From NCBI GenBank assembly GCA_964016885.1, contig OZ024743.1:355260001-355324000 (forward strand): a DNA stretch of 64,000 nucleotides. The letters run 5' to 3'. Numbering within the stretch: the stretch's first letter is position 1; every line of letters begins with the position of its first letter. The translations under genes and the position numbers were made by a program. Below are positions 1-57,972 of this stretch, in pieces. The stretch comes from Eledone cirrhosa. Its lineage: Eukaryota. Below the pieces are notes generated by a model. That model made no database searches and was not told the DNA's origin. It was given only the letters and a program-made list of their open reading frames with translations.

Positions 1-1312
1 TATATATACATTCAACAGAGAGTAGAGAGTTTGACAACAGGTCGATGACTTTAGGGTAATGACATGTGGTGGTGGGGAGAGAGTGTAGACGTTATTGTGG
101 TGGTGGGGGACAGTGCGATGTATCTAGTTCATTTGACCGTTTTCTTCTCTTTGCAAAATTTGAATTTTAGCCATGTTATATTGAGATGTAAGTAAATGTA
201 AAATGTAAAATATAAATAAGGATTGCTCTGCTAAAATATACTAAAATATTTGTGTAACTTCCACAAACTTCTGTCGTGACATTCCCGAGTCCAGTAACCA
301 ACAAATTGTTGTATTTTGATGTTTCAGAATACAAAAGTTAATTAAAAACTTACCCCACGAAAAGACAGCGTGTGTTGTCCTATCTATAAGCTCCCTCATA
401 CATATACATATATATACATAAGGGACCTATTCAGACTATCGGAGAATCGTGCCAAACTCGGTTGCCAAATTACCTTCTTAAAACGCTGCCTAAAGAACAA
501 CATCATTCCAACCACCATCAGGAATATACATCTACCCGAATGTTTACGATCACCATCCTTCGAAAACACCATCCGCCACATTCAACGCACGTTTATCAAG
601 AAAATACTACGACACAACCACCACCAACTGCCACTCCATATACAAACGCTTTCCGAGCACATAGATCGTATAGCTCCAACCCTCACCCCTGACCACCAGG
701 TCCAGGAAATACGCAAAGCTATAGATCAGTGTTACCACACCAGAGTCAAATATGATAAACAGCGCCTTATACGGAAATACTAATGGACTGTAAACAAATA
801 CTACAATGACAACATCCGCTCCCACAGACGGACCGACTACAACCACACCAGGGGCAACAGCTATACAACACCCTCCGCTACACCCCCCAACATCGATCTA
901 CCTACCAACGATGCTTCACACCTCGTTACCGACTTAACCGGTACCCTCACCAACGACGAACTCGAACTTCTGCGCCTCGGACCCAAGTTCATCATTACAC
1001 AGCGTCTCGATGATAGACTGAAACTCGACATCGAAACCAACTTCTGTCGGACAGCATATCAACTGAAATGGCTAACCGCCATCCAAAACAACACCGAGAT
1101 CGATTACAACCCCACAACCCACCCCACACTCCCCACGTATCACCTCGACAACCCACTCCACCCCCCACCCACCAACCACGAACTTGACACTAAACTACTC
1201 AGGTTGAAACATTCTATCTCTAACATCCTTTCCCAACACACACACACACAATAAACGCAACCTCACCAATGCACAATTTAATACTCTCACCAACCTAAGA
1301 TCCAGGAACCTT

Positions 1313-2992
1313 GTGTACCTTCCCTCTGACAAGGGGAAAGAATTCTGTGTCATCTCGAGAGAGACCTACAACAACTTAGCTCTCCAACATCTTAATGACC
1401 ACAGCCTCTACTCGAAAGTCACAGGGACCTCCTCGACTCTAATCGAGGAAGGCATTAACACCATATGGACTAACATCTGTGTCCAACGAAAACTGCCAAA
1501 GAAGGTAAAAAACAACATAATGACTCGAAACAGCAAATTACCCACCTTCTACCACTTGGTTAAAACACATAAACAAGGACCCGATTTGAAAATCCGGCCC
1601 ATTGTCTCTAGCGTGGAGGGCCCACTCTACAAAATATCGTGGCTGCTCTCCACACTACTGAAACCCATTCTACACACACTACCAGCCCACGTCTGCAGCT
1701 CAAAGGAGGTCTTGGAGCGACTACACCATCTGGCGCCCAACACCAGAAAGGACAACGGTTATGCCTTCAGTCTTGATGTGGTCGCCCTTTATACCTCCGT
1801 ACCAGCATCCCCAGCCGTCGACCTGTTGACCGAACGAGTCCGAGCATCTAACTTACACTGCTTCGGACTCACACACACGGACATCCACCAACTCCTCTCC
1901 TTCGTTGTGGATAATGCACTCTTCAATTTCCTCGGCCACACGTACAAACAAATCTCTGGGCTACCTATGGGCTCTAGTCTGTCCGGCATACTTGCGATCT
2001 CGTACATGGACCACCTGGAACGCAAGGCACTCAATACCTGCCAACCCAACGCCGTCGCCTTCTACTCCAGATACGTTGATGACATCCTGATACTTACTTC
2101 TTCCCGGGAGATGGCGAATGAAATTCACCAAATCTTCAACGATACTGACCATCACGTCGATTTCACCATCGAACACCCAGGAGAAGACGGGTCACTCGCC
2201 CTCCTCGACTTCCGTATCAACATCTCGGAAGAAGGAGACATAAACACCACCTTCTACCGCAAAACAGCGTGCAAGGACTTATTTGTGCATTATAACTCAG
2301 CCCTCCCCAACAACGCTAAGAGAGGCTATGTCCTAAATGAACTGACACGGATCACTAACAGATGCAGCGACCCGATGGGTGGTCTTACCCATACCACGCA
2401 ATTCCGTAATCTACTCAGATCTAATGGTTATCCCAAGCGACTGATTAACGGAATTAGAGACCCCAGACCCAATAGACAGACACCCACTAGAAACTTAAAT
2501 AAAAGCAGGTGCTTCTTCAAAATCCCCCACCTGAGTGAATATACCACGAACGCCATCCGCAGGGCCATACGGACGGAGGGACTTGACATACATTTGGCCC
2601 ACACAGGACCTTAGCTGCGAAGATGCCTCTCCAACAAACCCGACGAGTCAGATGGGACGTGTTCCCTCAGCAACTGCCCGATACGGGGGGCAGATTGCCT
2701 ACGCACCTATGTCGTATATAAGATTCAATGCGGTAAATGTAACAAGTTTTACATAGGTAGCACCATCCGACCCCTACATGTTCGTATCAAGGAACATATC
2801 AACACCAACGCATCTTCCTTCCGTAAACACATCCTTAAATGCGGAAACCCACAGGGTAGACCCTTGGTCACAGTCCTAGCGACTGAACGCAGCATCGGAT
2901 CCTTAACGATAAAAGAAGCACTTGTTATTAAGAACCTCAGACCCCCACTTAACAACCGGGCTGAGAGAAATGAGCTGACATGGCTAACTTAA
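1313..2992 (+). pseudogene. PLE reverse transcriptase + GIY-YIG endonuclease, premature stop at 2612-2614
   Basis: ORF track plus manual translation through the TAG. Confidence 0.9.
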
Positions 2993-14733: not shown

Positions 14734-14946
<213 letters not shown>

Positions 14947-15015
14947 AAAAAGGGATGAAATCGAAAATGCAACTGAAGTCTTATTTTTTAAAAAAATATA
15001 TATATTTATTTGGTT

Positions 15016-15053
15016 CCTTTACCGGTTTCGCAGTTCTTCTGCTTTTCAAAAGG
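15016..15053 (-). ncRNA. Minimal type I hammerhead, U3:A8 core variant
   Basis: Reverse complement of 20487-20524. Confidence 0.75.
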
Positions 15054-15571
15054 TGAGTTGAGATGGAGGGTCTGTGGTTTTTCTCACATCTGGTTGGTCT
15101 CTAAATGTTACTTGTTTTATATGGAAAAAGTGGCTCGAAAACCAGGTTTTTCGAGAAGTAATTTGATTGGTTTGTCAATAATTATAATAAATTTCGCGCC
15201 AGTTCGCGTTACAGTAGTTCTTCAAATAAGAGAGAGGGGGGGGGGGGGTTGTCACAGGTTGTTTTTTCATATATGACTGTTTGAATTTCTTTTTACTTGA
15301 AAAAATGAGGCTCACGAAGGCTTTTTTTTGGTTGGTTATAAATGAAATTTGGCTGTCACGTGAACAAGTTTTCATTACATTTTTGCGCCCTTATTTGGAA
15401 AACTATTCTGTAGTCTTTATAGTGAATGTTATGACAATGGAGAGATAGTGGTCAAGGGAAAAGGGATTGGGAGAAATGTTCTGGTTCAGTGAATATGGCC
15501 AGCTGTCAGAGTTCAGGTGTCAGAGTTCAGATTTTCTATTGAGACTGAAGATATGTGTTTATTTGTGTGCT

Positions 15572-15604
<33 letters not shown>

Positions 15605-15860
15605 ATGTGTGTATTGGAAGATGATTCTATTAGTAGAGATGGGGGAGGGAGTTGTGTGTGTGTGTATATGGGTGTTATGTGTGTGTGCGCGAGTATGTTA
15701 GATAGAGAGAATATATATTTTGTGTGTGTGTATATATATATGTGTGTAGGAAAGTGGTTCTATTAGTAGAAATGGGGAGGATGTTGTAGGGGTGGGGGTT
15801 GTTATGTGTGTGTATGGGTGTTATGTGTGTGGGAGTATGGTTAGCATGTTAAGATGAAGA

Positions 15861-15920
<60 letters not shown>

Positions 15921-16038
15921 CCAGTGCAAACGTATGTTTAAGGTTTATTTAGTTCGGGTTTTTATTTTCTAAAGTAGAAGGTGTTATGTGTGTGTGTGTG
16001 TGTGTGTATGTCATATTGTTGTGTTGACATAATGTATA

Positions 16039-19000
16039 TTAAACCTTATTTAATGTTGGTCTATATTTTTGAATAAACATATTTTCCTTATTTATTCGCA
16101 TTTGTTCTGTTGTATTGTTAGCGCAAAGGTAAAATGGGAAGACTTGGAATTTGGGTGTCTTATTACTTGCGCAAATGTCTAGATGTCCACTTAGTGGTAT
16201 CTGTCTCGTGGTTGGATCTCGTAATTGTTGGCGATGAACTGTTATTCTGTTTCTGAGTGTGAGTTTAGTTTGTCCTATATAATCTTCATTGCATCCTTTA
16301 CATTTAATGGCATAAATTAGATTTTTTGATGAGCAAGTGAAGTGATTTTTTACAGTAAAATTTTGTCCTGATTTAAATGTATACGTGTTGCCTTCAATGA
16401 GGTGAGTGCAGGTTCCACAATTAGAGCGACCACATTTTTTGATACTTGGTTGTGGGTTTGTGGTAGGTAATTTGGCATTGGTGAGTAATGTTTTCAGTGA
16501 TTTTGGTTGTCTTTTGCTTTTGATTATTTTGTGTGTTTCAAGGGCTTTTTTCATTCTTGGGTTTTGTTTTAGTAGTGGGATGTTATTGTGAATAGTGTTG
16601 TAAGCTTCCGCATTTCTTGGGTTGTGTGTTGAGATATATGATAGAATATTGGACGTACCTTGAATTTGTTTCTGTTTCCGTAATTCATCAATGCCTATTG
16701 CTTTAGCCCTTTCTATTCCATTATTTATTAGTAATAGTGGGTACTCTCTCTCAAGTAGAATTTCCTTTAATTCTTGAAGTCTTTTATTTCGCGTTTCATA
16801 ATTGGAGACAATTGTGCAAATTCTTCTTGCTAGGTTAAAAGGAATGTTCGTCTTCGTGTGCTTTGGATGGTTGGGGGTGAATAGCAGATATTGTTTGGAA
16901 TCTGTTGGTTTGTAGTGTATGTCAGTTTCGATATTTGTGTCTTTTTTTGTGATTAAGATGTCCAGAAATGGGAGTTGATCTTGGCTGTATTCCATTGTGA
17001 ATTGGATGTGGTTATTGATGCCGTTTATTAAGTTTTTGAAATCCTTCAGTTGGTCGAGTGTGTGGGACCAAAGAATGAGGCAATCATCCAAGTAGCGTTT
17101 CCAATTCTCTGATAAATATTTGTGGAAGTTCAATCCGTATTTTGATTTGGACTGTTCATATATCTGGACTTCTAAGTATGCCATGACTAAGTTGGCATAA
17201 GTTGGAGCGGCTTTTGTTCCCATCGCAGTCCCCGATATTTGCTTGTAAGTATTGCCATCGAAATCAAAAAAGTTGTTCTGTAGGATGAATTTTAATCCCT
17301 CGGTGATGAAGCTTTTTTCTATTCTGTCAGGTATCTCATTGGGATATTTCTCTAGCCAGAATCCTATTGCTTCTAGTCCGTATTGGTGTGGGATCGTTGT
17401 GTAGAGATTCACTACATCGAAAGACACAATAATAGTGTCGTTGTTGACATGTTTGGGGAGGTGGTTTAAGAGGTCCAGATCGTCTCTTACAAGGCTTGGT
17501 ATGTGTTTCAGTATTGGTTTCAGTAGTATGTCTATAAAGTTGCTCTATCTGTGTGTTTCACATTGTGGGCCCGCTACAATTGGTCTTAATTTAAGGTCTG
17601 TGGGGTATTGTGTGTTCACGCAGGCTGAGGTGGATTGTTTACAGGCATCGTTGATTATTTTACATTTGTGGATCTTTGGAAGTCCGTAAAGGTTGCTGGT
17701 TTTGTATTCAAAATTTGTTAAATAATCGCGTTCCTTTTTAGTTAGGTCTTCCTGGTATCGATAAATCAGTGTGTTTAATTTGGTCATTATTTTTGATTGC
17801 TGGTAGTTTTTTACTCTTTCATAGTAATTAGCATTTTGTAAGAGAGAGAACATAGAATTTTTATATTTTTCAGCCTCCATAATGACAACAGTACTTCCCT
17901 TGTCCGCTTCCTTAATTACAATGTCCGGATTGTTGTTTAGTTCATGGATAATCTCCCATTCCCTTCGACTTGTGTTGGGTTTGGGTTTAGGTTGCGGTAG
18001 TTCATGGTATGGGAAGGTGGCTATGTGGTCACAAAATTTGTCCAGAACTCTGTTTCTACCTTTTGTTGGGTTGTAGCTGCTTTTATTCCGTACAATTGAT
18101 TCGTCGTTATTCTCCTTGTCAAAGAATTCCTCTGTGAGACGTAATTTTCTACAGAAGTGTGAGATATCGTCATTTATCTCGTTGGGGTTAGGATATTGTG
18201 GTGTTGGTGTGAATTTCAGACCTTTGGAGAGAATTTTTACTTGTTGGGCTGAGAGGTTTGTATTTGAAATGTTAATTATTTTCGGTTTTTCAAAATCGGT
18301 TTGTGCCACCGGGTGTCGTGAGTCCTGTAGCCTTGGTCTAAAAAATGATTTTTCTGGAATGTTTTTTCATTGGTATTATTATCTCTAATGGTATTTCCCC
18401 TGTTGTTGTGTGGTCTTGTATAGAAGTTTCGGACGTATTGAGGTTCGGTTTGTTGATAGTCCGGGTTGTAGATTTGATTCCTTTGTGTGGGTTGGGATCT
18501 ATGGTTTTGGAACAGGCTCTGTGTGGGCAGGGGTCTACGGTTTTGGAATAGGTTTTGTGTGGGTTGTGATCTGCGGATCAGGTCCTGCCTTGTGTTCGGG
18601 GATCTTTGGTTTTTGTTAGTAGGGTTATAGTTTTGTCTATGGTTTCTGGGATTATCGTTATAGTTTTGCTGGGGGTATGTTGGACGTTTAGTTACTTTTT
18701 TTGTTATTTGTTGTGCATGTGGTGTGTGAGTTTTAGTTTGTTTTAAAAATGGGTTACCTGTATGTTGTTCATTTTTGAAGTCCATTTCGTAGTTGTTGAA
18801 CCAGGTGGCGTTTTTTTCCCATCGCTGGAGGGATGTGAGTTCTTCATCCTCACAGTTTTCTTTCCAAAGTTTTAGGGGGTTTTTGTAGAGTAGGCCTTCA
18901 GAGTGCTTTGAGATTTCTGTGTCCATCTGTTGGTCGAGTGACTTGAATTTTTCTTCGTTGGTGTTGGCTCTTAATCGCAACAGTTCTATTTCTGTTTTAA

Positions 19001-19119
19001 ATTTTTCCAATGCCATCTTTTCCCTAAGTCTTTGTTGGTTTTCTGGTTCATTCGGGATGGGTTTTATTTGGAGTTTTTTGGGGAGGATGATTGGGGTAGA
19101 GTTTAGCCACTTTTCATAT
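16039..19119 (-). pseudogene. PLE polyprotein: N-terminal region, RT, Cys linker, GIY-YIG endonuclease
   Basis: KGLKF, ADKG, LPKIHK, RPIV, SFDVVNLYT, GTAMGT, YLDD, CGRSNCGTC, LIYAIKCKGCNEDYIGQT..R..H. One in-frame TAG at 17545-17547 and one frameshift at ~18310-18350; the reading frame is cut at the inversion junction. Confidence 0.93.
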
Positions 19120-19594
19120 ATGTAAAGGATGCAATGAAGATTATATAGGACAAACTAAACTCACACTCAGAAACAGAATGACAGTTCATCGCCAACAATT
19201 ACGAGATCCAACCACGAGACAGATACCACTAAGTGCACATCTAGACATTTGCGCAAGTAATAAGACACCCAAATTCCAAGTCTTCCCATTTTACCTTTGC
19301 GCTAACAATACAACAGAACAAATGCGAATAAATAAGGAAAATATGTTTATTCAAAAATATAGACCAACATTAAATAAGGTTTAATATACATTATGTCAAC
19401 ACCACAATATGACATACACACACACACACATAACACCTTCTACTTTAGAAAATAAAAACCCGAACTAAATAAACCTTAAACATACGTTTGCACTGGCAAT
19501 ACAACTGCAAACACGAAAAAGTCAGGAAATATGTTCATTCAAAAATATTCCTACTAAAGGAATCATTTTCCTACACACACACATACACACACAC

Positions 19595-19688
<94 letters not shown>

Positions 19689-20486
19689 TCTTCATCTTAA
19701 CATGCTAACCATACTCCCACACACATAACACCCATACACACACATAACAACCCCCACACCTACAACACCCTCCCCATTTCTACTAATAGAACCACTTTCC
19801 TACACACATATATATATACACACACACAAAATATATATTCTCTCTATCTAACATACTCGCACACACACACATAACACCCATATACACACACACACACAAC
19901 TCCCTCCCCCATCTCTACTAATAGAATCATCTTCCAATACACACACACACACATATATACACACACACAAGCACACAAATAAACACATATCTTCAGTCTC
20001 AATAGAAAATCTGAACTCTGACACCTGAACTCTGACAGCTTGCCATATTCACTGAACCAGAACATTTCTCCCAATCCCTTTTCCCTTGACCACTATCTCT
20101 CCATTGTCATAACATTCACTATAAAGACTACAGAATAGTTTTCCAAATAAGGGCGCAAAAATGTAATGAAAACTTGTTCACGTGACAGCCAAATTTCATT
20201 TATAACCAACCAAAAAAAAGCCTTCGTGAGCCTCATTTTTTCAAGTAAAAAGAAATTCAAACAGTCATATATGAAAAAACAACCTGTGACAACCCCCCCC
20301 CCCCTCTCTCTTATTTGAAGAACTACTGTAACGCGAACTGGCGCGAAATTTATTATAATTATTGACAAACCAATCAATTTACTTCTCGAAAAACCTGGTT
20401 TTCTAGCCACTTTTTCCATATAAAACAAGTAACATTTAGAGACCAACCAGATGTGAGAAAAACCACAGACCCTCCATCTCAACTCA

Positions 20487-20524
20487 CCTTTTGAAAAGCA
20501 GAAGAACTGCGAAACCGGTAAAGG
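20487..20524 (+). ncRNA. Minimal type I hammerhead, U3:A8 core variant
   Basis: CCTT-TTGAAAA-GCAG-AAGAA-CTGC-GAAAC-CG-GTA-AAGG, followed by AATAAA. Confidence 0.78.
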
Positions 20525-20655
20525 AACCAAATAAATATATATATTTTTTTTAAAAATAAGACTTCAGTTGCATTTTCGATTTCATCCCTTTTTCTTTATA
20601 CTTCCACTCGTGTAGGACACCTCGGTTATTTTTCATTTTGTAAAAAAAACCTCAC

Positions 20656-20704
<49 letters not shown>

Positions 20705-21372
20705 TAATTTAATATATCAACTAACATAAGCGCACAGATGCACGCCCATGCCAGCAAATACACAGGTTATGTCATAGTACCTAGGTGGTTCAATGCAGGA
20801 GAATGCAGAACAATAATATAAAGGACGTAAAATAAGAAAATATTTTTTTTTTTTTTTTTTTTTTTAAATTTAAAAAAAATTTTAAAAAAATTTTTAAAAA
20901 ATTTTTTACTTACTTAAATTTTCACTCCAACTAATAAGTTTCTGCAATGGGATAAAGACAGTTACGTAATCCAACTTACGTAATTCTCCTGCATTGAACC
21001 ACCTAGGTACTATGACATAACCTGTGTATTTGCTGGCATGGGCGTGCATCTGTGCGCTTATGTTAGTTGATATATTAAATTATCTATATTTATCTCCAAA
21101 TCACTGATTTGTCGAGCAAACTTGTCAAAACCACTTCTAAAAAAATTTTTTTTGGGGTGTTAGTAGGCGTCAGTCATCTTACCATCCCATTCCTTCTAAC
21201 TAGCCTCTGTGTCACGTGATTGATTCTTTAGAATCGGCCATTTGACTTGAAGCAGTGAGAATTTCGGTACATAGAATCCAGTCCTCGCAAGCTGTTCGAT
21301 CTACCGAATTATTATTATTTTTATATGAGCCGCCAGTGTCCGCGCATTGTCTGGAGACTTAACTGAGAATAG

Positions 21373-21454
21373 ACTCCCTGATGACGCAATGAATTCTCGA
21401 CAGTTGGATTACGTAACTGTCTTTATCCCATTGCAGAAACTAATTAGTTGGAGT
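21373..21454 (+). ncRNA. Type I hammerhead ribozyme with extended, branched stem II
   Basis: ACTCC-CTGATGA-C-GCAATG..GACAGTT(9)AACTGTC..CATTGC-A-GAAAC-TAATTA-GTT-GGAGT; co-varies with the copy at 34958-35039. Confidence 0.88.
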
Positions 21455-21504
21455 GAAAATTTAAGTAAGTAAAAAATTTTTTTTAAATTTTTTTAAAATT
21501 TTTT

Positions 21505-21543
<39 letters not shown>

Positions 21544-21622
21544 TTTCTTATTTTACGTCCTTTATATATATATATATATATATATATATTTAGTTTTGTA
21601 ATAAACTACATAAGATAATTAT

Positions 21623-21876: not shown

Positions 21877-22093
21877 GCAAACATCACGGGCCCGCTATCT
21901 CAAAATTATTTTTGAAAAGCATTAGAAATGCGCAACCGGTAAAAACTTAAAACTAAAACTGAATACTAACCAATACATATTACTAATTTTTACTTATTCC
22001 TAATTAAACTATTTTTCACTGGGAACAATTTGTCAGCATTTTCTTTTCCTTTTACCAATATATCACAAATCGTGTGTTACACCTCTTTTCTTT

Positions 22094-25499: not shown

Positions 25500-26135
25500 A
25501 TTAAGGAGGTTAAGGTTCGAAAAGATTATAAGTATGGGTCTCTAGTAGACAGAGGTTACAGAATGTATTAGGTGGTTTGTACGATGCCGCCTTACCTATC
25601 ACTTCCCATTGTAGTGTATATGATCTATTTTTAGTTTTCAGATAGTGTATGTAGCTAGATAGTGAAGTGGAGTTGGCTAGACAGTGTTTTTTGAAAGAAT
25701 GGAGATGTGAGTTGTATCTCGTTTTGAAGCAGTTCGAAGTAGAGCCTATATAGGTTTCAGAAGAGTTGCTAGTTCTGACCGTGCATGAGTAGATGATGTC
25801 CTTGATTAAGTAGTTTTTACCTAAAGGGCAGGTTCTATTAGATCTACAGTTACATTTATTTTGGATGTTAACCTATCGGTTATTATGTTGTGTAGAAGTC
25901 TGGTTGCTAGGTATTGCATTATGGCTATGAAGGTTGTCGCTCCTAATGCTATTGATTTCATTAGTGTTATTACTATTATTACTATTGATATCAGGGTTTG
26001 TAGTTATTACGTTGTTTTGAAAGTTTACTCCCTGCTGTGTTTTAGTTTGTTGAAAGTAAGTATTAATCTTTCTTTTATTGCTACTAGCTATGTGGTATGC
26101 TATGTTAGGCGTGGTAAAGTAGGAGATTTTAATGG
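25500..26135 (-). mobile_element. Naiad-like PLE remnant (thumb/linker/GIY-YIG), degraded
   Basis: NTIKISYFTTPNI, then CNCRSNRTCPLGK..IIYSCTV..TYIGSTSNCFKTRYNSH in broken frames. Confidence 0.75.
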
Positions 26136-26649: not shown

Positions 26650-27185
26650 AGGTGGTTGAGTCATCGTAGGAATGTCAATCCAGTTACAAAGTAGATGCGA
26701 TTTCAGGTGAGGACAACATCTGAAGATCTCGGTCTTGGAATTAAGGCAAATGGAAGTGGCTTTCAAATTTTGGAGAATTCTAAATTTTTCCGTGGTGCAC
26801 AAAGAACAATTCTTTGCGCCCCTTTGGTATTCTCTTGGATGGTCTAAAATATACCAATCAATAGTGTACGGAATGTTTTTGCCTTTGAATTCCGACACTT
26901 TAATTGCGAGGGCTGTGCTGTTCTTTTCTCAGGGTGTTTAAAAGAAGTGACATGTGCATAATACCTTGTTTTGAACCTATCCTGAGTCATGCCAACATAT
27001 CGTTCACTCCAGGCTGGCTCGTTATTAATCAACGGTGTCAATTTGGCCTCATACATAATGAATTTAGTGTTACATTTGCCCTGTAATGGGCATTCTTCCG
27101 GCTTCCTGCAACTGCATCCTGGATTTACTCTCGTACGATTAGAGTTGGTAATTTTAGTCTTCATTGATGGACAGAAAGAGTAACA
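26650..27185 (-). mobile_element. Naiad-like PLE GIY-YIG fragment
   Basis: CSCRKPEECPLQGKC..IMYEA..YVGMTQDRFKTRYYAH; next frame YTIDWYIL..CSLCTTEK..LNSKTEIFRCCPH. Confidence 0.85.
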
Positions 27186-27194
27186 GGATGTGCA

Positions 27195-27409
27195 CAGATG
27201 TGAGAAAAACCACAGACCCTCCATCTCAACTCTACTTTTGAAAAGCAGAAGAATTGCGAAACCGGTAAAGGAACCAAATAAATATATATATTTTATTTTT
27301 TTTTAAATATGACTCCAGTTGCATTTTCGATTTCATCTTTTTTTCTTTATACTTTCACTCGTGTAGGACACCTCGGTTATTTTTCATTTTGTAAAAAACC
27401 TCACTTTCT

Positions 27410-27455
<46 letters not shown>

Positions 27456-27630
27456 AAAAAAAGATGAAATCGAAAATGGAACTGGAGTCTTATTTTTTTT
27501 TAAATATATATATTTATTTGGTTCCTTTACCGGTTTCGCAGTTCTTCTGCTTTTCAAAAGTAGAGTTGAGATGGAGGGTCTGTGGTTTTTCTCACCTCCG
27601 TTATTTTTCATTTTGTAAAAAAACCCTCAC

Positions 27631-30470: not shown

Positions 30471-31521
30471 ACTTGATTGTGTCCTTCATTGCTTCAGGCT
30501 TCAGGAAAAGTATAGAACTGTATCTTTACATGGGATGATGGTATTGGTGATATGTATAATGATGTTGTGGGATGATGAGAAGGTTGAGTATATTGTTCAC
30601 ATTGAGGTTGATGATGATGATTGTGAAGATGATGATAATGACGATGACGAGAATAACGACAGTGATTTCGCTAACGAGGATCAGCTTCAATATCGTGTGT
30701 GATTATCATGAATACGATGATGTTGATAATGTTACGGATTTTAGCCCAGATTACTCCATCCTTCAATTTTTGTTATACTGTGTTGTTGTATTGTTGTGTG
30801 GTTTAATCACAGACCGAGCTTTGATTCTTAGTAAAAGACAGCCGAAAAATTTGAAGCAATTACTAACAAAGGCAAAGTTTGACCTTAACAACAAAGACCA
30901 ATCATTCACTGTATCTAAATGCAATGATAGTCGATGTGGCACATGCCAGTCCATACACACTGGTCAATATATGAACCCCAAAACTGGAAAAATATTCTCA
31001 AATGCAAATATGAACTGCAAAAGCAGAAATCTAATTTACTGCATTAAATGCCCGAATTGTGAAGAACTATATGTCGGTCAAACTGGAAATGCACTATCGG
31101 AACGTGCACGGGTGCACCGACAGCAAATCAGAGATTCAAATGTCCGTCAGATACCCCTAAGTAACCATCTAGCAACATGTGGTCAGAAAATATTTATAAT
31201 ATTTCCATTCTACAAACTACACAGCCCAAATGAAATCAAGAGAAAAATTAAAGAAAAGAATGTTATTGATAAATTCCAACCAAAGCTAAATGAATAATAA
31301 TAATGCTTAGTGGTATTACTTCTACTATGACTACGTCTACGACCATGTCGACTACCACCACTAACAACAATAACAACAATAATAATAATAAAAGTGATGT
31401 TGATGGTGATGATTACTGAAGATTTTTTTATAAAAACCCTAGAAAACGCTATTTTCATCATTTTTAAAAATAGCAAAACAATTGATGCTTTGGATAGGGT
31501 CAAATAGAAGTCGTCATTAGA

Positions 31522-31694: not shown

Positions 31695-31733
31695 TGAACC
31701 TGAAGATTGCGAAAGCATGAAAGTACTTGTTCA
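31695..31733 (+). ncRNA. Minimal type I hammerhead ribozyme
   Basis: TGAAC-CTGAAGA-T-TGC-GAAA-GCA-T-GAAAG-TA-CTT-GTTCA; GNRA-capped stem II, palindromic AAGTACTT stem III. Confidence 0.85.
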
Positions 31734-36395: not shown

Positions 36396-38236
36396 GCCAA
36401 TATGGAGGTACATATGAACGCACGTACACACAACGATACACATACAAAAGAACGGCCACTCATACAAATACATACAAACATGTACTTATAAATATATGCA
36501 TATACACAGGCACATAAAAACAGCTCTACAAGCAGAAAATACAGATAGGTAAGAGGTACTTACATAATCATAGTGCCGTGTTTCAGGTTGAGAAGGGGTA
36601 GGAATGAGGTAGAGGGGCTATTTTGTCCGGTGGCGTTAAAAAAAGAACAAAAAATAAAGGGGAAGTCGTTTTTAGCCATCGAGCATTAACACTGGCTTAA
36701 GGTATTTGAAAGTTGCAAAGTTTTTGTGCATGCAGTTCGGGCAGTGTTCAGAGAGTTTGTTCAGTAGCGGGCCCTTGGCGAATAATATTTCGTAGCTCTC
36801 TGAGATACAAAGGTCGCGGCACTTGTGTCCTCCGTTGTATGAGCGCGCTTACTGGAGTATTTTCCATTTAAGCGTGAAGGGTGGACTTCCTTTTGAGGTC
36901 CCAAACATAGTAGGCGTGTGTTGTCTGATTTGATTTGTCCGGTTTTCTGAAGGAGTGGGTACGGGTCTTAAATTTATTGGAAGTCATGCCGATGTAAGTC
37001 GTTTTGTTGTTGCAATCATCGGTGCCTGAGATGACATCGCATTTGTGTACGATATCATTTGTCAGGCATTTGTTTTCAAGTGGGCAGGCTTCTTTATTTA
37101 GGCAGTTACACAAGGCCTCAGTCCGGGGATTGGGTTCGGAGGTGGTTGGCTTATTTAATTTATTAGAATTGTGATTGGTTATATTCCTAGCCAGGTTAGG
37201 TGTAGTGGAGTAGGAGAGTCTTATTGTGTTCTTATTAAAGATGGTGTAGTACCTGTGTTGTATGGGGAAGTGTGTTTTCAGCAAAGTGAAGAAAATCCTA
37301 GCTATAGGTGTAGAGACCTCTTTATTGAAGGGAGGGTTGTACCAGCTAATCTACCTATGCCTATTCCTCCTATGCGGTCTTGCGGTGATGTCTAGGTAGG
37401 TTATCTTTTCTTTAAATCCGGTGCGGGCGAGGGCGTCATTGTAGTAGGAGGCAAAGGCGTTAAATATATCTTCATTGGCCGAGAGACGCTTTTTACTAAG
37501 TTATCAGTGAAGTTTTTGGGGTGGTTAGAATTAACATTAATATATCTAAGGGACTCATTAGGTTTGTGGTACGGATAATAGAAGGAAGTATCTAGGTCGA
37601 GAGTGACATCTAAAAAGTTGGCCCTAGTCTTATTAGATTGTATAGTTATACTAAATCATAGATTACGGAAGAACGAGCTTAAGTTTCTCCGAAACCCATC
37701 GGTGGTTCTGGGGTTAACCTTGTGCAGGCCGAAGAGGCCGTCGTCTCGGTATAAACGTCCGGTTAGACAAGTAAAAAGGTTCTTCGGGTGTTGTAAAATG
37801 TAGAGGCCCACAGGGTCGCTTATTTCAGCCGAGTCACTCGCTCCCACGCTGACGTCAAATGGGGTCTGAGACTTCTTGTTGATCCAGTAAGATCCATCGT
37901 GGTATAGGAAGGTCTTACGGGCATGGAGTATAACATCTTGCTCAGCATCGGTTATGGTAGTAAAATTCCTAGCAAAAGTGATTGCGTCCTTCAGGAGGGG
38001 CTCCGAGATAGAGGCATAGTAGTTTTCTATGTCGAGTTGCAGGAAGCGAGTGTGGCGTTTGTCGGGTAATTCTTGGAACTAAGATATTGCCTCAGATGTT
38101 CTGCTCCAGAGTGGGAGTGGTGAGGCAACCCGCAATGATGGTAGAACTCTATCAAAGATCTTCTTACTGATAGAGCCGATGTCCGAACGAGTGAGGTTTA
38201 TATGTCTGACTGATGGTTTGTTGAGGAAGTTTCCCT
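36395..38236 (-). mobile_element. Naiad-like PLE (RT + GIY-YIG), 5'-truncated and degraded
   Basis: [85 protein letters not shown]. The 3' UTR segment 36401-36536 is duplicated at 35532-35666. Confidence 0.88.
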
Positions 38237-41289: not shown

Positions 41290-41610
41290 TAGAAAGTGAG
41301 GTTTTTTCACAAAATGAAAATAAACGAGGTGTCCTACACGAGTGAAAGTATAAGGAAAAAGATGAAATCGAAAATGCAACTGGAGTCTTTTTTAAAATAT
41401 TTATTTGGTTCCTTTACCGGTTTCGCAGTTCTTGTGTTTTTCAAAAGTAGAATTGAGATGGACGGTTCTCGAGAAAAACCACAAACCCTCCATCTCAATT
41501 CTACTTTTGAAAAGCACAAAAACTGCGAAACCGGTAAAGGAGCCAAATAAATATATATTTTTTTTAAAAGACTCCAGTTGCATTTTCGATTTCATCTTTT
41601 TTCCTTATAT
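41290..41610. repeat. Head-to-head inverted pair of PLE 3' termini with U3:A8 hammerheads
   Basis: Arms ~41349-41462 and ~41489-41608; hammerheads 41411-41448 (-) and 41503-41540 (+). Confidence 0.88.
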
Positions 41611-47739: not shown

Positions 47740-48028
47740 CGGTCTGCAATCACCGGGCCGCGGACCATGGACTATCTGGTACAAGGCCGCACAGAAAGAA
47801 TAACACTTTTTATTTCATTTTATTGACTACAAAGGTCTACCGCATGTTGAGTTACATTTACAATATAAATATAATAATTAAACGAATAATAAAATTATAT
47901 AATATGCACTTTATTGTTTATTGTGTTTTGTTATGCGTTTAACCAACACCGAAGCCCCTACCTTTGGTCAGTGGAGAAATTGTCTTGTATGACCCCGTTC
48001 CGTGGCACAAAAAGGTTGGGGATCGCTG
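47740..48028 (-). mobile_element. hAT (Charlie-like) MITE, inverted copy
   Basis: Reverse complement of 48143-48435. Confidence 0.8.
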
Positions 48029-48142
48029 GCATAGATCGCTATATATATATATAGTCTACCTCTCTTGTCTGGGTGCTGCCACTTGTCTTCCTTTACTTAT
48101 CCTTCCTACGTACCATCACACTCCTCTCTCACTCATCTATAC

Positions 48143-48435
48143 CACCGATCCCCAACCTTTTTGTGCCACGGAACGGGGTCATACAAGACAATTTCTCGAC
48201 TGATCAAAGGTAGGGGCTTCGGTGTTGGTTAAACGCATAACAAAACACAATAAACAATAAAGTGCATATTATATAATTTTATTATTCGTTTAATTATTAT
48301 ATTTATATTGTAAATGTAACTCAACATGCGGTAGACCTTTGTAGTCAATAAAATGAAATAAAAAGTGTTTATTCTTTCTGTGCGGCCTTGTACCAGATAG
48401 TCCATGGTCCGCGGCCCGTTGATTGCAGACCGCTG
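48143..48435 (+). mobile_element. hAT (Charlie-like) MITE
   Basis: Termini CACCGATCCCCAACC / GATTGCAGACCGCTG; 8-bp TSD ATCTATAC / ATCTATTC. Confidence 0.82.
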
Positions 48436-48705: not shown

Positions 48706-49129
48706 TATTGTTATGCTTTGGGAGGGTCATGTTGCCAATAAGAAACACACGTACCAGTTTCTTTCACTTCAATTTATTATAAATTAAATTTATAAATTTA
48801 GGAATTTATAAATTTCCGGTTGGTTGGTTGGTTCCACAACCAGACGATTGTTCATATATTGTCAAAGTTCTTTCGTCACACATTCTGTGTGATGGTGTAG
48901 GACAGAACAAAGGAGAGGCTCAAAAACAAAGAAAATAATCCCCAGTCACTGAAGAGGTCACAGAATGTGTGACGAAAGAACTTTGACAATATATGAACAA
49001 TTGTCTGGTTGTGGAACCAACCAACCGGAAATTTATAAATTCCTAAATTTATAAATTTAATTTATAATAAATTGAAGTGAAAGCAACTGGTGTGTGTGTT
49101 TCTTATTGGCCACATGACCCTCCCAAACC

Positions 49130-55631: not shown

Positions 55632-55824
55632 CAGACCCTCCATCTCAACTCTACTTTTGAAAAGCAGAAGAACTGCGAAACCGGTAAAGGAACCAAATAA
55701 ATATATATATTTTTTTTAAAATAAGACTCCAGTTGCATTTTCGATTTCATCTTTTTTCTCTATACTTTCACTCGTGTAGGACACCTCGGTTATTTTTCAT
55801 TTTGTAAAAAAACCTCACTTTCTA
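55632..55824 (+). mobile_element. Solo PLE 3' terminus with U3:A8 hammerhead (55653-55690)
   Basis: Homologous to 20466-20660. Confidence 0.85.
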
Positions 55825-56015
55825 AAACCTGTTAGTTCTTTCGTTACTTTGGTATTGTGTGTTAGATTTTGCCTACCGCAATGTTCAATTTGTCAAGCTA
55901 TTTAAACGTATGGTATTACTCTGAGGACCTACCTTGTCGAGTGCTTTGCTAACTCATTCATATCGTAGGTCGAATTTGCTTGCACACCGCCAAAGATTCG
56001 ATTTTACTAAGCCTC

Positions 56016-56066
<51 letters not shown>

Positions 56067-57020: not shown

Positions 57021-57048
<28 letters not shown>

Positions 57049-57053
<5 letters not shown>

Positions 57054-57968
57054 AATGAGACGTATAGAGATTGTTTTAGCAAGAAGCTAACGGCATTCTA
57101 TAACATATATGCGACTATAACGTCAAGATGGGAAAAGTAGTTAACGAAAGATTTAGGAAAAATAACTCAAACTCATCTCAAAAGAGAATCAGGATACAAA
57201 TTCATCCACAGAATTTAGTAAAATCCATGGAAAAATCTATAGACCTTTAACTCATGATAAAACAAAGTTTGAAACACTTATCCTTCAATTTGGAATAACA
57301 TCAAATGCTCTGTATAGTCTTAAAAGACTATTTCATGAAAACTTTCAGTGGAGATGGTCACGGTTGGAATATCATTCATCAGCAGAGCTCAACAGAAAAC
57401 CAGGGCTCTCACAGTAATATAGTCCGAAAAAGGGAATTCTAAAACTGGCTAGTTCGCCTTCATGTGTATTTATGAAAAAGCACATGAGGAAAAAACGGGG
57501 CTAGTGACGTCAGGATGGAAGTGAATGTTTATTTACAAGAAATAGCAGTCAAATACATTCTGAAAAAAACTCTACAAGGAGTTCAGCAAAATAGCAATAA
57601 TTATCACAGTTTTTATGAAAAAAACCGGGATTAGTCACAGATAGTTTAAGCACTCTAGGAAAAGAATCCGAGTATAAATATAAATGAGACGTATAGAGAT
57701 TGTTTTAGCAAGAAGCTAACGGCATTCTATAACATATATGCGACTATAACGTCAAGATGGGAAAAGTAGTTAACGAAAGATTTAGGAAAAATAACTCAAA
57801 CTCATCTCAAAAGAGAATCAGGATACAAATTCATCCACAGAATTTAGTAAAATCCATGGAAAAATCTATAGACCTTTAACTCATGATAAAACAAAGTTTG
57901 AAACACTTATCCTTCAATTTGGAATAACATCAAATGCTCTGTATAGTCTTAAAAGACTATTTCATGAA

Positions 57969-57972
<4 letters not shown>
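57049..57972 (-). mobile_element. Non-coding partial-tandem element (629-bp unit) with hammerhead; retrozyme-like or non-autonomous PLE
   Basis: Direct repeat ~57049-57343 / ~57678-57972; no ORF in the track; (AT)n on both sides. Confidence 0.8.
57307..57388 (-). ncRNA. Type I hammerhead ribozyme with stable stem III
   Basis: GCTCTG-CTGATGA-ATGA-(33 nt)-TCAT-GAAA-TAGTCTT-TT-AAGACTA-TA-CAGAGC; AUA cleavage triplet. Confidence 0.88.

Follow-up and report, generated by a model that had tools for sequence, protein, structure and literature searches.

A hammerhead motif with a U3:A8 core pair in a young Neptune-like Penelope element of Eledone cirrhosa

The stretch of DNA analysed here, called the window, comprises 64 kb of contig OZ024743.1 of the cephalopod Eledone cirrhosa. 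On its minus strand, a reading frame at 16039..18366 encodes a reverse transcriptase (RT), a CX4CxxC linker and a GIY-YIG endonuclease (EN), interrupted by one in-frame TAG at 17545-17547. Pfam recognized RVT_1 with an E-value of 1.7e-6, below the curated cut-off, and GIY-YIG with 5.3e-7. Intact relatives of the protein have 750-770 residues and are 62-77 % identical; the best named relatives are proteins of Octopus bimaculoides with 68-77 % identity over part of the query. The C-X4-C-XX-C linker was invariant in an alignment of 29 proteins. Counted by eye, the spacer between the linker and the next cysteine had 24 residues; in the supplement alignment of Craig et al. 2021 (PMC8557442), two Neptune rows have 25-27 residues there and the Nematis rows about 7. 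An RT with GIY-YIG, inverted pLTRs and an optional tail characterize the element as an EN+ Penelope-like element (PLE). The label "Neptune-like" is fairly justified by the linker and its spacer and by the C-terminal position of the endonuclease, the relatives in the trees being unlabelled.

Upstream of the RT frame and overlapping it by about 90 bases lies an ORF1 frame (18276..19154, minus strand), homologous to ORF1 of related loci and cut at the inversion junction near 19117. The 3' pLTR (14941..16306, minus strand) comprises the end of the endonuclease, a microsatellite-rich 3' UTR and a hammerhead motif, and ends in (TA)n without a tail. The inverted 5' pLTR (19117..20662, plus strand) ends in (TA)n as well and carries the tail, about 62 bases at 20601..20662 (plus strand), an optional part found in four of the seven hammerhead copies of the window. 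Belonging to a single insertion, the two pLTRs share 99.0-99.3 % identity (381/385 and 606/610 positions in two stretches compared), and by this measure the family is young. Copies terminate at either of two sites separated by about 62 bases; in runs X1 and X5, the shorter terminus (20600) was also represented by loose ends that continue into (TA)n. A TA run stands at the end of six of seven copies, in line with the (TA)n targets of the Neptune clade. The copy at 55653 has an extra 188 bases (55830-56017, plus strand) between the tail and the TA run, without a match in the window or the related loci. They may belong to the element as additional 5' sequence, or else be unrelated to it.

In most cases the RT frame lacks its own upstream methionine. 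A TTTTTTA slippery heptamer (18339..18345, minus strand) lies in register for a predicted -1 frameshift that would lead from ORF1 to the RT frame. Of the related loci, 22 extended far enough upstream for comparison; 13 of these had an in-register slippery heptamer after at least 100 open codons, and in 11 it was TTTTTTA followed by G (L002, L006, L013, L014, L017, L018, L020, L021, L032, L041 and L044); these are observed counts with no shuffle baseline. The legend to Figure 1 of Craig et al. 2021 (PMC8557442) states that ORF1 can be set apart by a frameshift with a pseudoknot. The TTTTTTA shift is probably this known one. No other relevant report on a Neptune frameshift was found in the openly accessible literature covered.

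Further mobile elements were present in the window. A different PLE at 346-2992 (plus strand), with RT and GIY-YIG broken by stops, is distant from the Neptune-like family, and the scans called no hammerhead in its vicinity. Decayed GIY-YIG/RT fragments, Naiad-like by eye and containing CxC motifs, occupy 25510-25872, 26844-27302 and 36868-38078 on the minus strand. Fold-backs and near-perfect duplications among (TA)n occur throughout the window and involve several repeat families, e.g., at 47740-48432, 57044-57972 and 20816-21567. A weak Rfam match to the HDV-like ribozyme RF02682 (10412-10491, minus strand; 33.7 bits against a cut-off of 44, E 0.019) is located a few hundred bases beyond the end of a long transposase-like ORF (13336-10815, hAT-like by eye).

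The hammerhead motif of the inverted 5' pLTR occupies 20487..20524 on the plus strand. Stem I is formed by CCTT (20487-90) and AAGG (20521-24) with 4 bp. The core UUGAAAA follows at 20491-97 as U3, U4, G5, A6, A7, A8 and A9, which places U3 at 20491 and A8 at 20496. Stem II, GCAG/CTGC at 20498-20510, has 4 bp and a loop AAGAA, and is succeeded by GAAA (20511-14), CCGG, U16.1 (20519) and A17 (20520). The palindrome ACCGGT at 20514-20519 represents a vestigial stem III. The predicted cut falls after A17 at 20520, i.e., after GUA. Stems I and II with the G10.1-C11.1 closing pair are present in this copy.

The window was scanned for TTGAAAA-N(0-30)-GAAAC with 100 shuffles as control. Seven matches were obtained against a shuffle mean of 0.40 and a maximum of 3, and none of the 100 shuffles reached seven. 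The other six copies, those on the minus strand being named by their low-end coordinate, are as follows. The copy at 15016..15053 (minus strand) is identical to that at 20487 and lies in the 3' pLTR in the sense of the ORF, 986 bases past the stop codon. The copies at 27234..27271 (plus strand) and 27524..27561 (minus strand) are convergent, both with a stem I of 3 bp; the former is a short 5'-truncated insertion with a tail and a G.U wobble in stem II, the latter is preceded by an inverted tail piece. The two arms of a short inverted pair, 41411..41448 (minus strand, tail present) and 41503..41540 (plus strand, without tail), have broken pairs in stem II. The copy at 55653..55690 (plus strand) has a tail and a stem I of 3 bp. 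The positions N3-U4-G5-A6-N7-N8-A9, G12-A13-A14-A15.1 and U16.1-H17 were conserved in all seven copies. Six of them make up three inverted pairs, hence the seven are not independent. As a separate observation, the copy at 27234 sits within a decayed GIY-YIG/RT fragment.

An eighth, diverged copy at 21908..21945 (plus strand) kept TTGAAAA with U3:A8 and CCGG-TA, and its stem I has 3 bp. It carries paired, compensatory changes, from C-G to U-A in stem I and from G-C to U-A in stem II, and GCAA replaces GAAA. This copy is likely dead as a ribozyme; the catalytic positions are intact in seven of the eight copies in the window. An earlier note, made from the letters of this DNA, had listed the seven exact-core copies correctly and missed the eighth. 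It had paired both CCTT and ACTT with AAGG, which holds for the 4-bp CCTT form (two of the seven copies); ACTT, present in the other five, pairs in three of four positions and leaves an A.G mismatch. The stem II damage in both 41-kb copies was noticed there, the wobble in the copy at 27234 was overlooked. Its proposal of tandem dimers does not apply within the window: neighbouring copies are inverted, and a same-strand tandem pair was absent.

Rfam did not report the motif. Over the whole window, there was no hammerhead among the 150 of 264 matches listed, and a local scan at 20487 returned five matches at E up to 10, none to a hammerhead family. In a local scan at 31700, a hammerhead with the canonical C3:G8 pair was likewise unmatched, so the U:A pair does not account for the Rfam miss at 20487. 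This canonical minimal hammerhead (31695-31733, plus strand) has a GTAC palindrome and lies about 400 bases past the endonuclease (30839-31297) of a further Neptune-type family; this endonuclease is 46 % identical to that of the main element. A descriptor that constrained neither position 3 nor position 8 returned the seven copies and the C3:G8 hammerhead at 31700 in the window. A further C3:G8 hammerhead-like motif was seen at 48945-48986 (plus strand), with a stem II of 6 bp, an extra base after A9 and a stem III one change short of a palindrome.

For a comparison beyond the window, 68 related loci were gathered from the alignment of 29 proteins. No relatives were found in viral contigs. Four loci (L065-L068) are Neptune-like PLE contigs in bacterial assemblies (SUP05, Bacteroidota, Campylobacteraceae), probably DNA of animal hosts that was binned with the bacteria by mistake. 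The 41 loci with at least 150 bases past the RT-EN match were scanned with a descriptor that left positions 3 and 8 free, its final form having been chosen after looser scans. Hammerheads were called on the sense strand past the ORF in 28 loci: 24 had C3:G8, four had U3:A8 (L011, L027, L029 and L068) and none had a mixed pair. The palindrome GAAA-CCGG-U was common to many of them. Antisense strands yielded 0 calls and shuffle sets 0.1 each, while 13 of the 41 3' regions were without a call under the final descriptor. In a looser scan, L008 showed U3.G8 in a hammerhead-like motif that has an additional base ahead of the core and lies about 250 bases past the ORF. Three near-copies were then removed and L008 and both families of the window added; the resulting table counted 22 C:G, five U:A, one U.G and no C.A (Fisher p 6e-5, ignoring kinship). 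These counts indicate that the 3:8 pair covaries and that U3:A8 is a compensatory swap.

A tree of 28 rows, the called loci without L023 and L030 and with L008 and the window added, had three changes of the 3:8 state, two of them forced by starred branches. A single clade of all five U:A rows was rejected (p-AU 1.3e-70). Without L011, which has a stem I of only 2 bp, a single clade was not rejected (p-AU 0.44), thus the U:A state may be older than the window family, and an independent origin within this family is unsupported once L011 is set aside. L008, which groups as sister to L027 and L029 (both U:A), may represent an intermediate state. A bolder interpretation would have the pair flip repeatedly from C:G to U:A within one Neptune lineage via U.G, as in L008, with a dimer-only ribozyme retained each time; U:A would then be a selected setting of the cleavage rate between trimming of tandem transcripts and an uncut template for the RT. 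We regard this as a long shot. If true, the sister families with C:G (31700) and U:A (20491) in one genome would offer a natural paired test of the purpose of PLE hammerheads.

Four runs (X1, X5, X8 and X20) were aligned to 20250-20674 at 80 % likeness, with differences recorded from 4 %. Run X1, with 8,433 aligned contigs and possibly derived from the window's own source, had no A>G places and five T>C places, all at listed sites outside the motif; therefore neither U3C nor A8G occurred at 4 % or more in this run. The ACTT-type change of stem I made up about 54 % of its depth. Only two contigs aligned in run X8, and the read ends at 20482 in run X20, which stem from a RAD-seq library, were left out of the analysis. 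Over 20460-20660, read depth exceeded that of the upstream part several-fold, as expected if many copies are short and 5'-truncated. The near-invariance of U3 and A8 within the family can be explained by its youth alone and is no evidence of selection. Several proposals of the earlier note agree with the data: a hammerhead, here of the minimal type I, in a Neptune-like PLE (RT, CX4CxxC linker, C-terminal GIY-YIG, (TA)n targets), recent activity (pLTR identity), U3:A8 as compensatory swap (no mixed pairs with positions 3 and 8 free) and its fixation, for which the lack of reversion in run X1 speaks.

In the predicted minimum-energy fold of the 38-mer, stems I and II form and stem III is unable to close in the monomer. 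A double-hammerhead dimer was predicted at -18.9 kcal/mol against a dimer minimum of -20.3 kcal/mol, with -8.3 kcal/mol for the ACCGGU duplex. When 160 bases of context are included, the motif is predicted to be hidden in another structure at minimum energy, which counts against a working ribozyme, as do the short stem I of 3-4 bp and the lack of a visible loop-loop contact.

Every copy in the window spans the cut site and ends 80 or 142 bases past it, so that the template for insertion would have been uncut or re-ligated there. This agrees with results on the hammerhead of an Anolis PLE (PMC11167929): the RNA cleaves only with protein, a C3G/G8C double mutant partly rescues cleavage, insertion in vitro is not impaired by mutations in the hammerhead and proceeds predominantly from unprocessed RNA, and RNA-seq ends at the cut site were not found. 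We therefore read the motif as a minimal type I hammerhead whose U3:A8 core is compensatory, a slow, dimer-dependent and probably protein-assisted ribozyme that trims long transcripts; we consider this likely, with cleavage, dimer formation and trimming being inferred. Two copies would pair through the ACCGGU palindrome and cleave slowly after GUA (20520), as a dimer only and probably aided by protein. Dimers might form in trans or in transcripts of tandem master copies, of which the window contains none. A tandem layout exists in L006, where two hammerheads on one strand are separated by 3,699 bases; it would suit dimers in cis. The inverted pLTRs within one transcript would be expected to form a long duplex. 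Cleavage would reduce long read-through transcripts to unit length, and the RNA reverse-transcribed into the window copies would be uncut, or re-ligated, at the 3' hammerhead.

The main rival to a slow ribozyme is a vestigial or structural role: the motif derives from a hammerhead and is weak or dead here, kept as a protein-binding or dimerization structure near the starts of reverse transcription or hitch-hiking in a young family. The Anolis mutants that insert normally in vitro and the absence of RNA ends at the cut site would suit such a role (PMC11167929), as would the spanning of the cut site by every window copy and the 3-bp stem I of the majority. Minimal PLE hammerheads are poor cleavers even as dimers (PMC4209133), and Naiads thrive without canonical hammerheads (PMC8557442). 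However, the 3:8 pairing, important for the active fold, is retained in 28 of 28 called loci, and seven of eight window copies have all catalytic positions intact. We hold a weak or dead motif to be unlikely, though it deserves more credit than the other alternatives.

The cut site may also be read as a splice donor. The GT at 20518-20519 would be the 5' splice site of a pLTR intron that extends to the AG at 20614-20615, which would put splicing and self-cleavage in competition for this site. The sequence CG|GTAAAG resembles a donor and a pyrimidine tract precedes GTGTAG; introns in the 5' UTR are known in PLEs, and in D. virilis an intron end meets the hammerhead (PMC4209133, PMC8557442). Against this stand the poor donor contexts GGTT or GGTC at this place in related families, and no such GT..AG joint was among the eight joints listed for the four runs, none of which is on record as RNA. 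Splicing here is very improbable. Chance resemblance of an A-rich repeat segment to a loose hammerhead pattern can be dismissed in practice: the seven copies are one sequence family and hence one observation, UUGAAAA is frequent in AT-rich DNA and Rfam lacked a hammerhead match, but position, strand and architecture recur in the 28 related loci with the controls near zero, the eighth copy carries compensatory changes and the C3:G8 hammerhead at 31700 is passed over by Rfam, too.

The minimal type I hammerhead with U3:A8 is a new example of a published variant. The novelty that the earlier note implied for this core does not stand, since Cervera and De la Pena 2014 (PMC4209133) described U3:A8 covariation in PLE hammerheads, missed by their own descriptor, with the UUGAAAA core in about 1,300 matches in Schistosoma PLEs; they found dimer cleavage of PLE hammerheads to be weak. 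A natural covariation from C3:G8 to U3:A8 was reported also by Perreault et al. 2011 (PMC3088659), who state that activity in vitro had been shown earlier. Luense et al. 2017 listed very many PLE hammerheads (as cited in PMC6765202). For cephalopod PLE hammerheads, the only relevant report in the openly accessible literature covered was Craig et al. 2021 (PMC8557442); a cephalopod example may thus be unrecorded there. A specialist is unlikely to be surprised by a Neptune hammerhead with U3:A8. With it, a mollusc-type Neptune family joins the PLE hammerheads known for this pair. The comparison also supports retention of the active-site pair by PLE hammerheads, which bears on the question whether these weak ribozymes are needed for transposition. 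Descriptors in hammerhead surveys should admit UUGANAA.

Among known systems, the covariants of Perreault et al. 2011 share the swap with the window and are not tied to PLE pLTRs in the part of that paper available. The test of single and double mutants at positions 3 and 8 has been carried out on the hammerhead of the Anolis Poseidon element PAc. As reported there (PMC11167929), PAc shares a pLTR hammerhead, AT-rich targets and a tail that marks two start sites of reverse transcription; it differs in belonging to the Poseidon clade and in having a C3:G8 core, an ORF that begins within the ribozyme and a tail of 30-40 bp versus about 62 in the window. According to Craig et al. 2021 (PMC8557442), PLEs regularly have inverted 5' copies and optional tails. 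As described there, the Neptune clade shares with the window element an RT with C-terminal GIY-YIG, the inverted 5' pLTR, the optional tail and microsatellite targets, and Neptune1_Nv and Neptune-1_Ac share a CX2-5CxxC linker and a long spacer. Compared to its related loci, the window element has a long microsatellite-rich 3' UTR, with the hammerhead 986 bases past the stop versus about 70-510 past the match end. The closest counterparts are the Cercyon hammerheads of Schistosoma mansoni (PMC4209133), which are of the minimal type I, reside in pLTRs, have U3-A8 with an identical UUGAAAA in "S. mansoni (4)", a palindromic stem III and a short stem I, and are missed by a CUGANGA descriptor. The window family is Neptune-like and occurs in a cephalopod, whereas Cercyon belongs to a trematode; its hammerhead has a stem II of 4 bp, shorter than in Cercyon, lacks the additional base behind A9 and has the 6-base palindrome ACCGGU and the cut site GUA instead of GUU.
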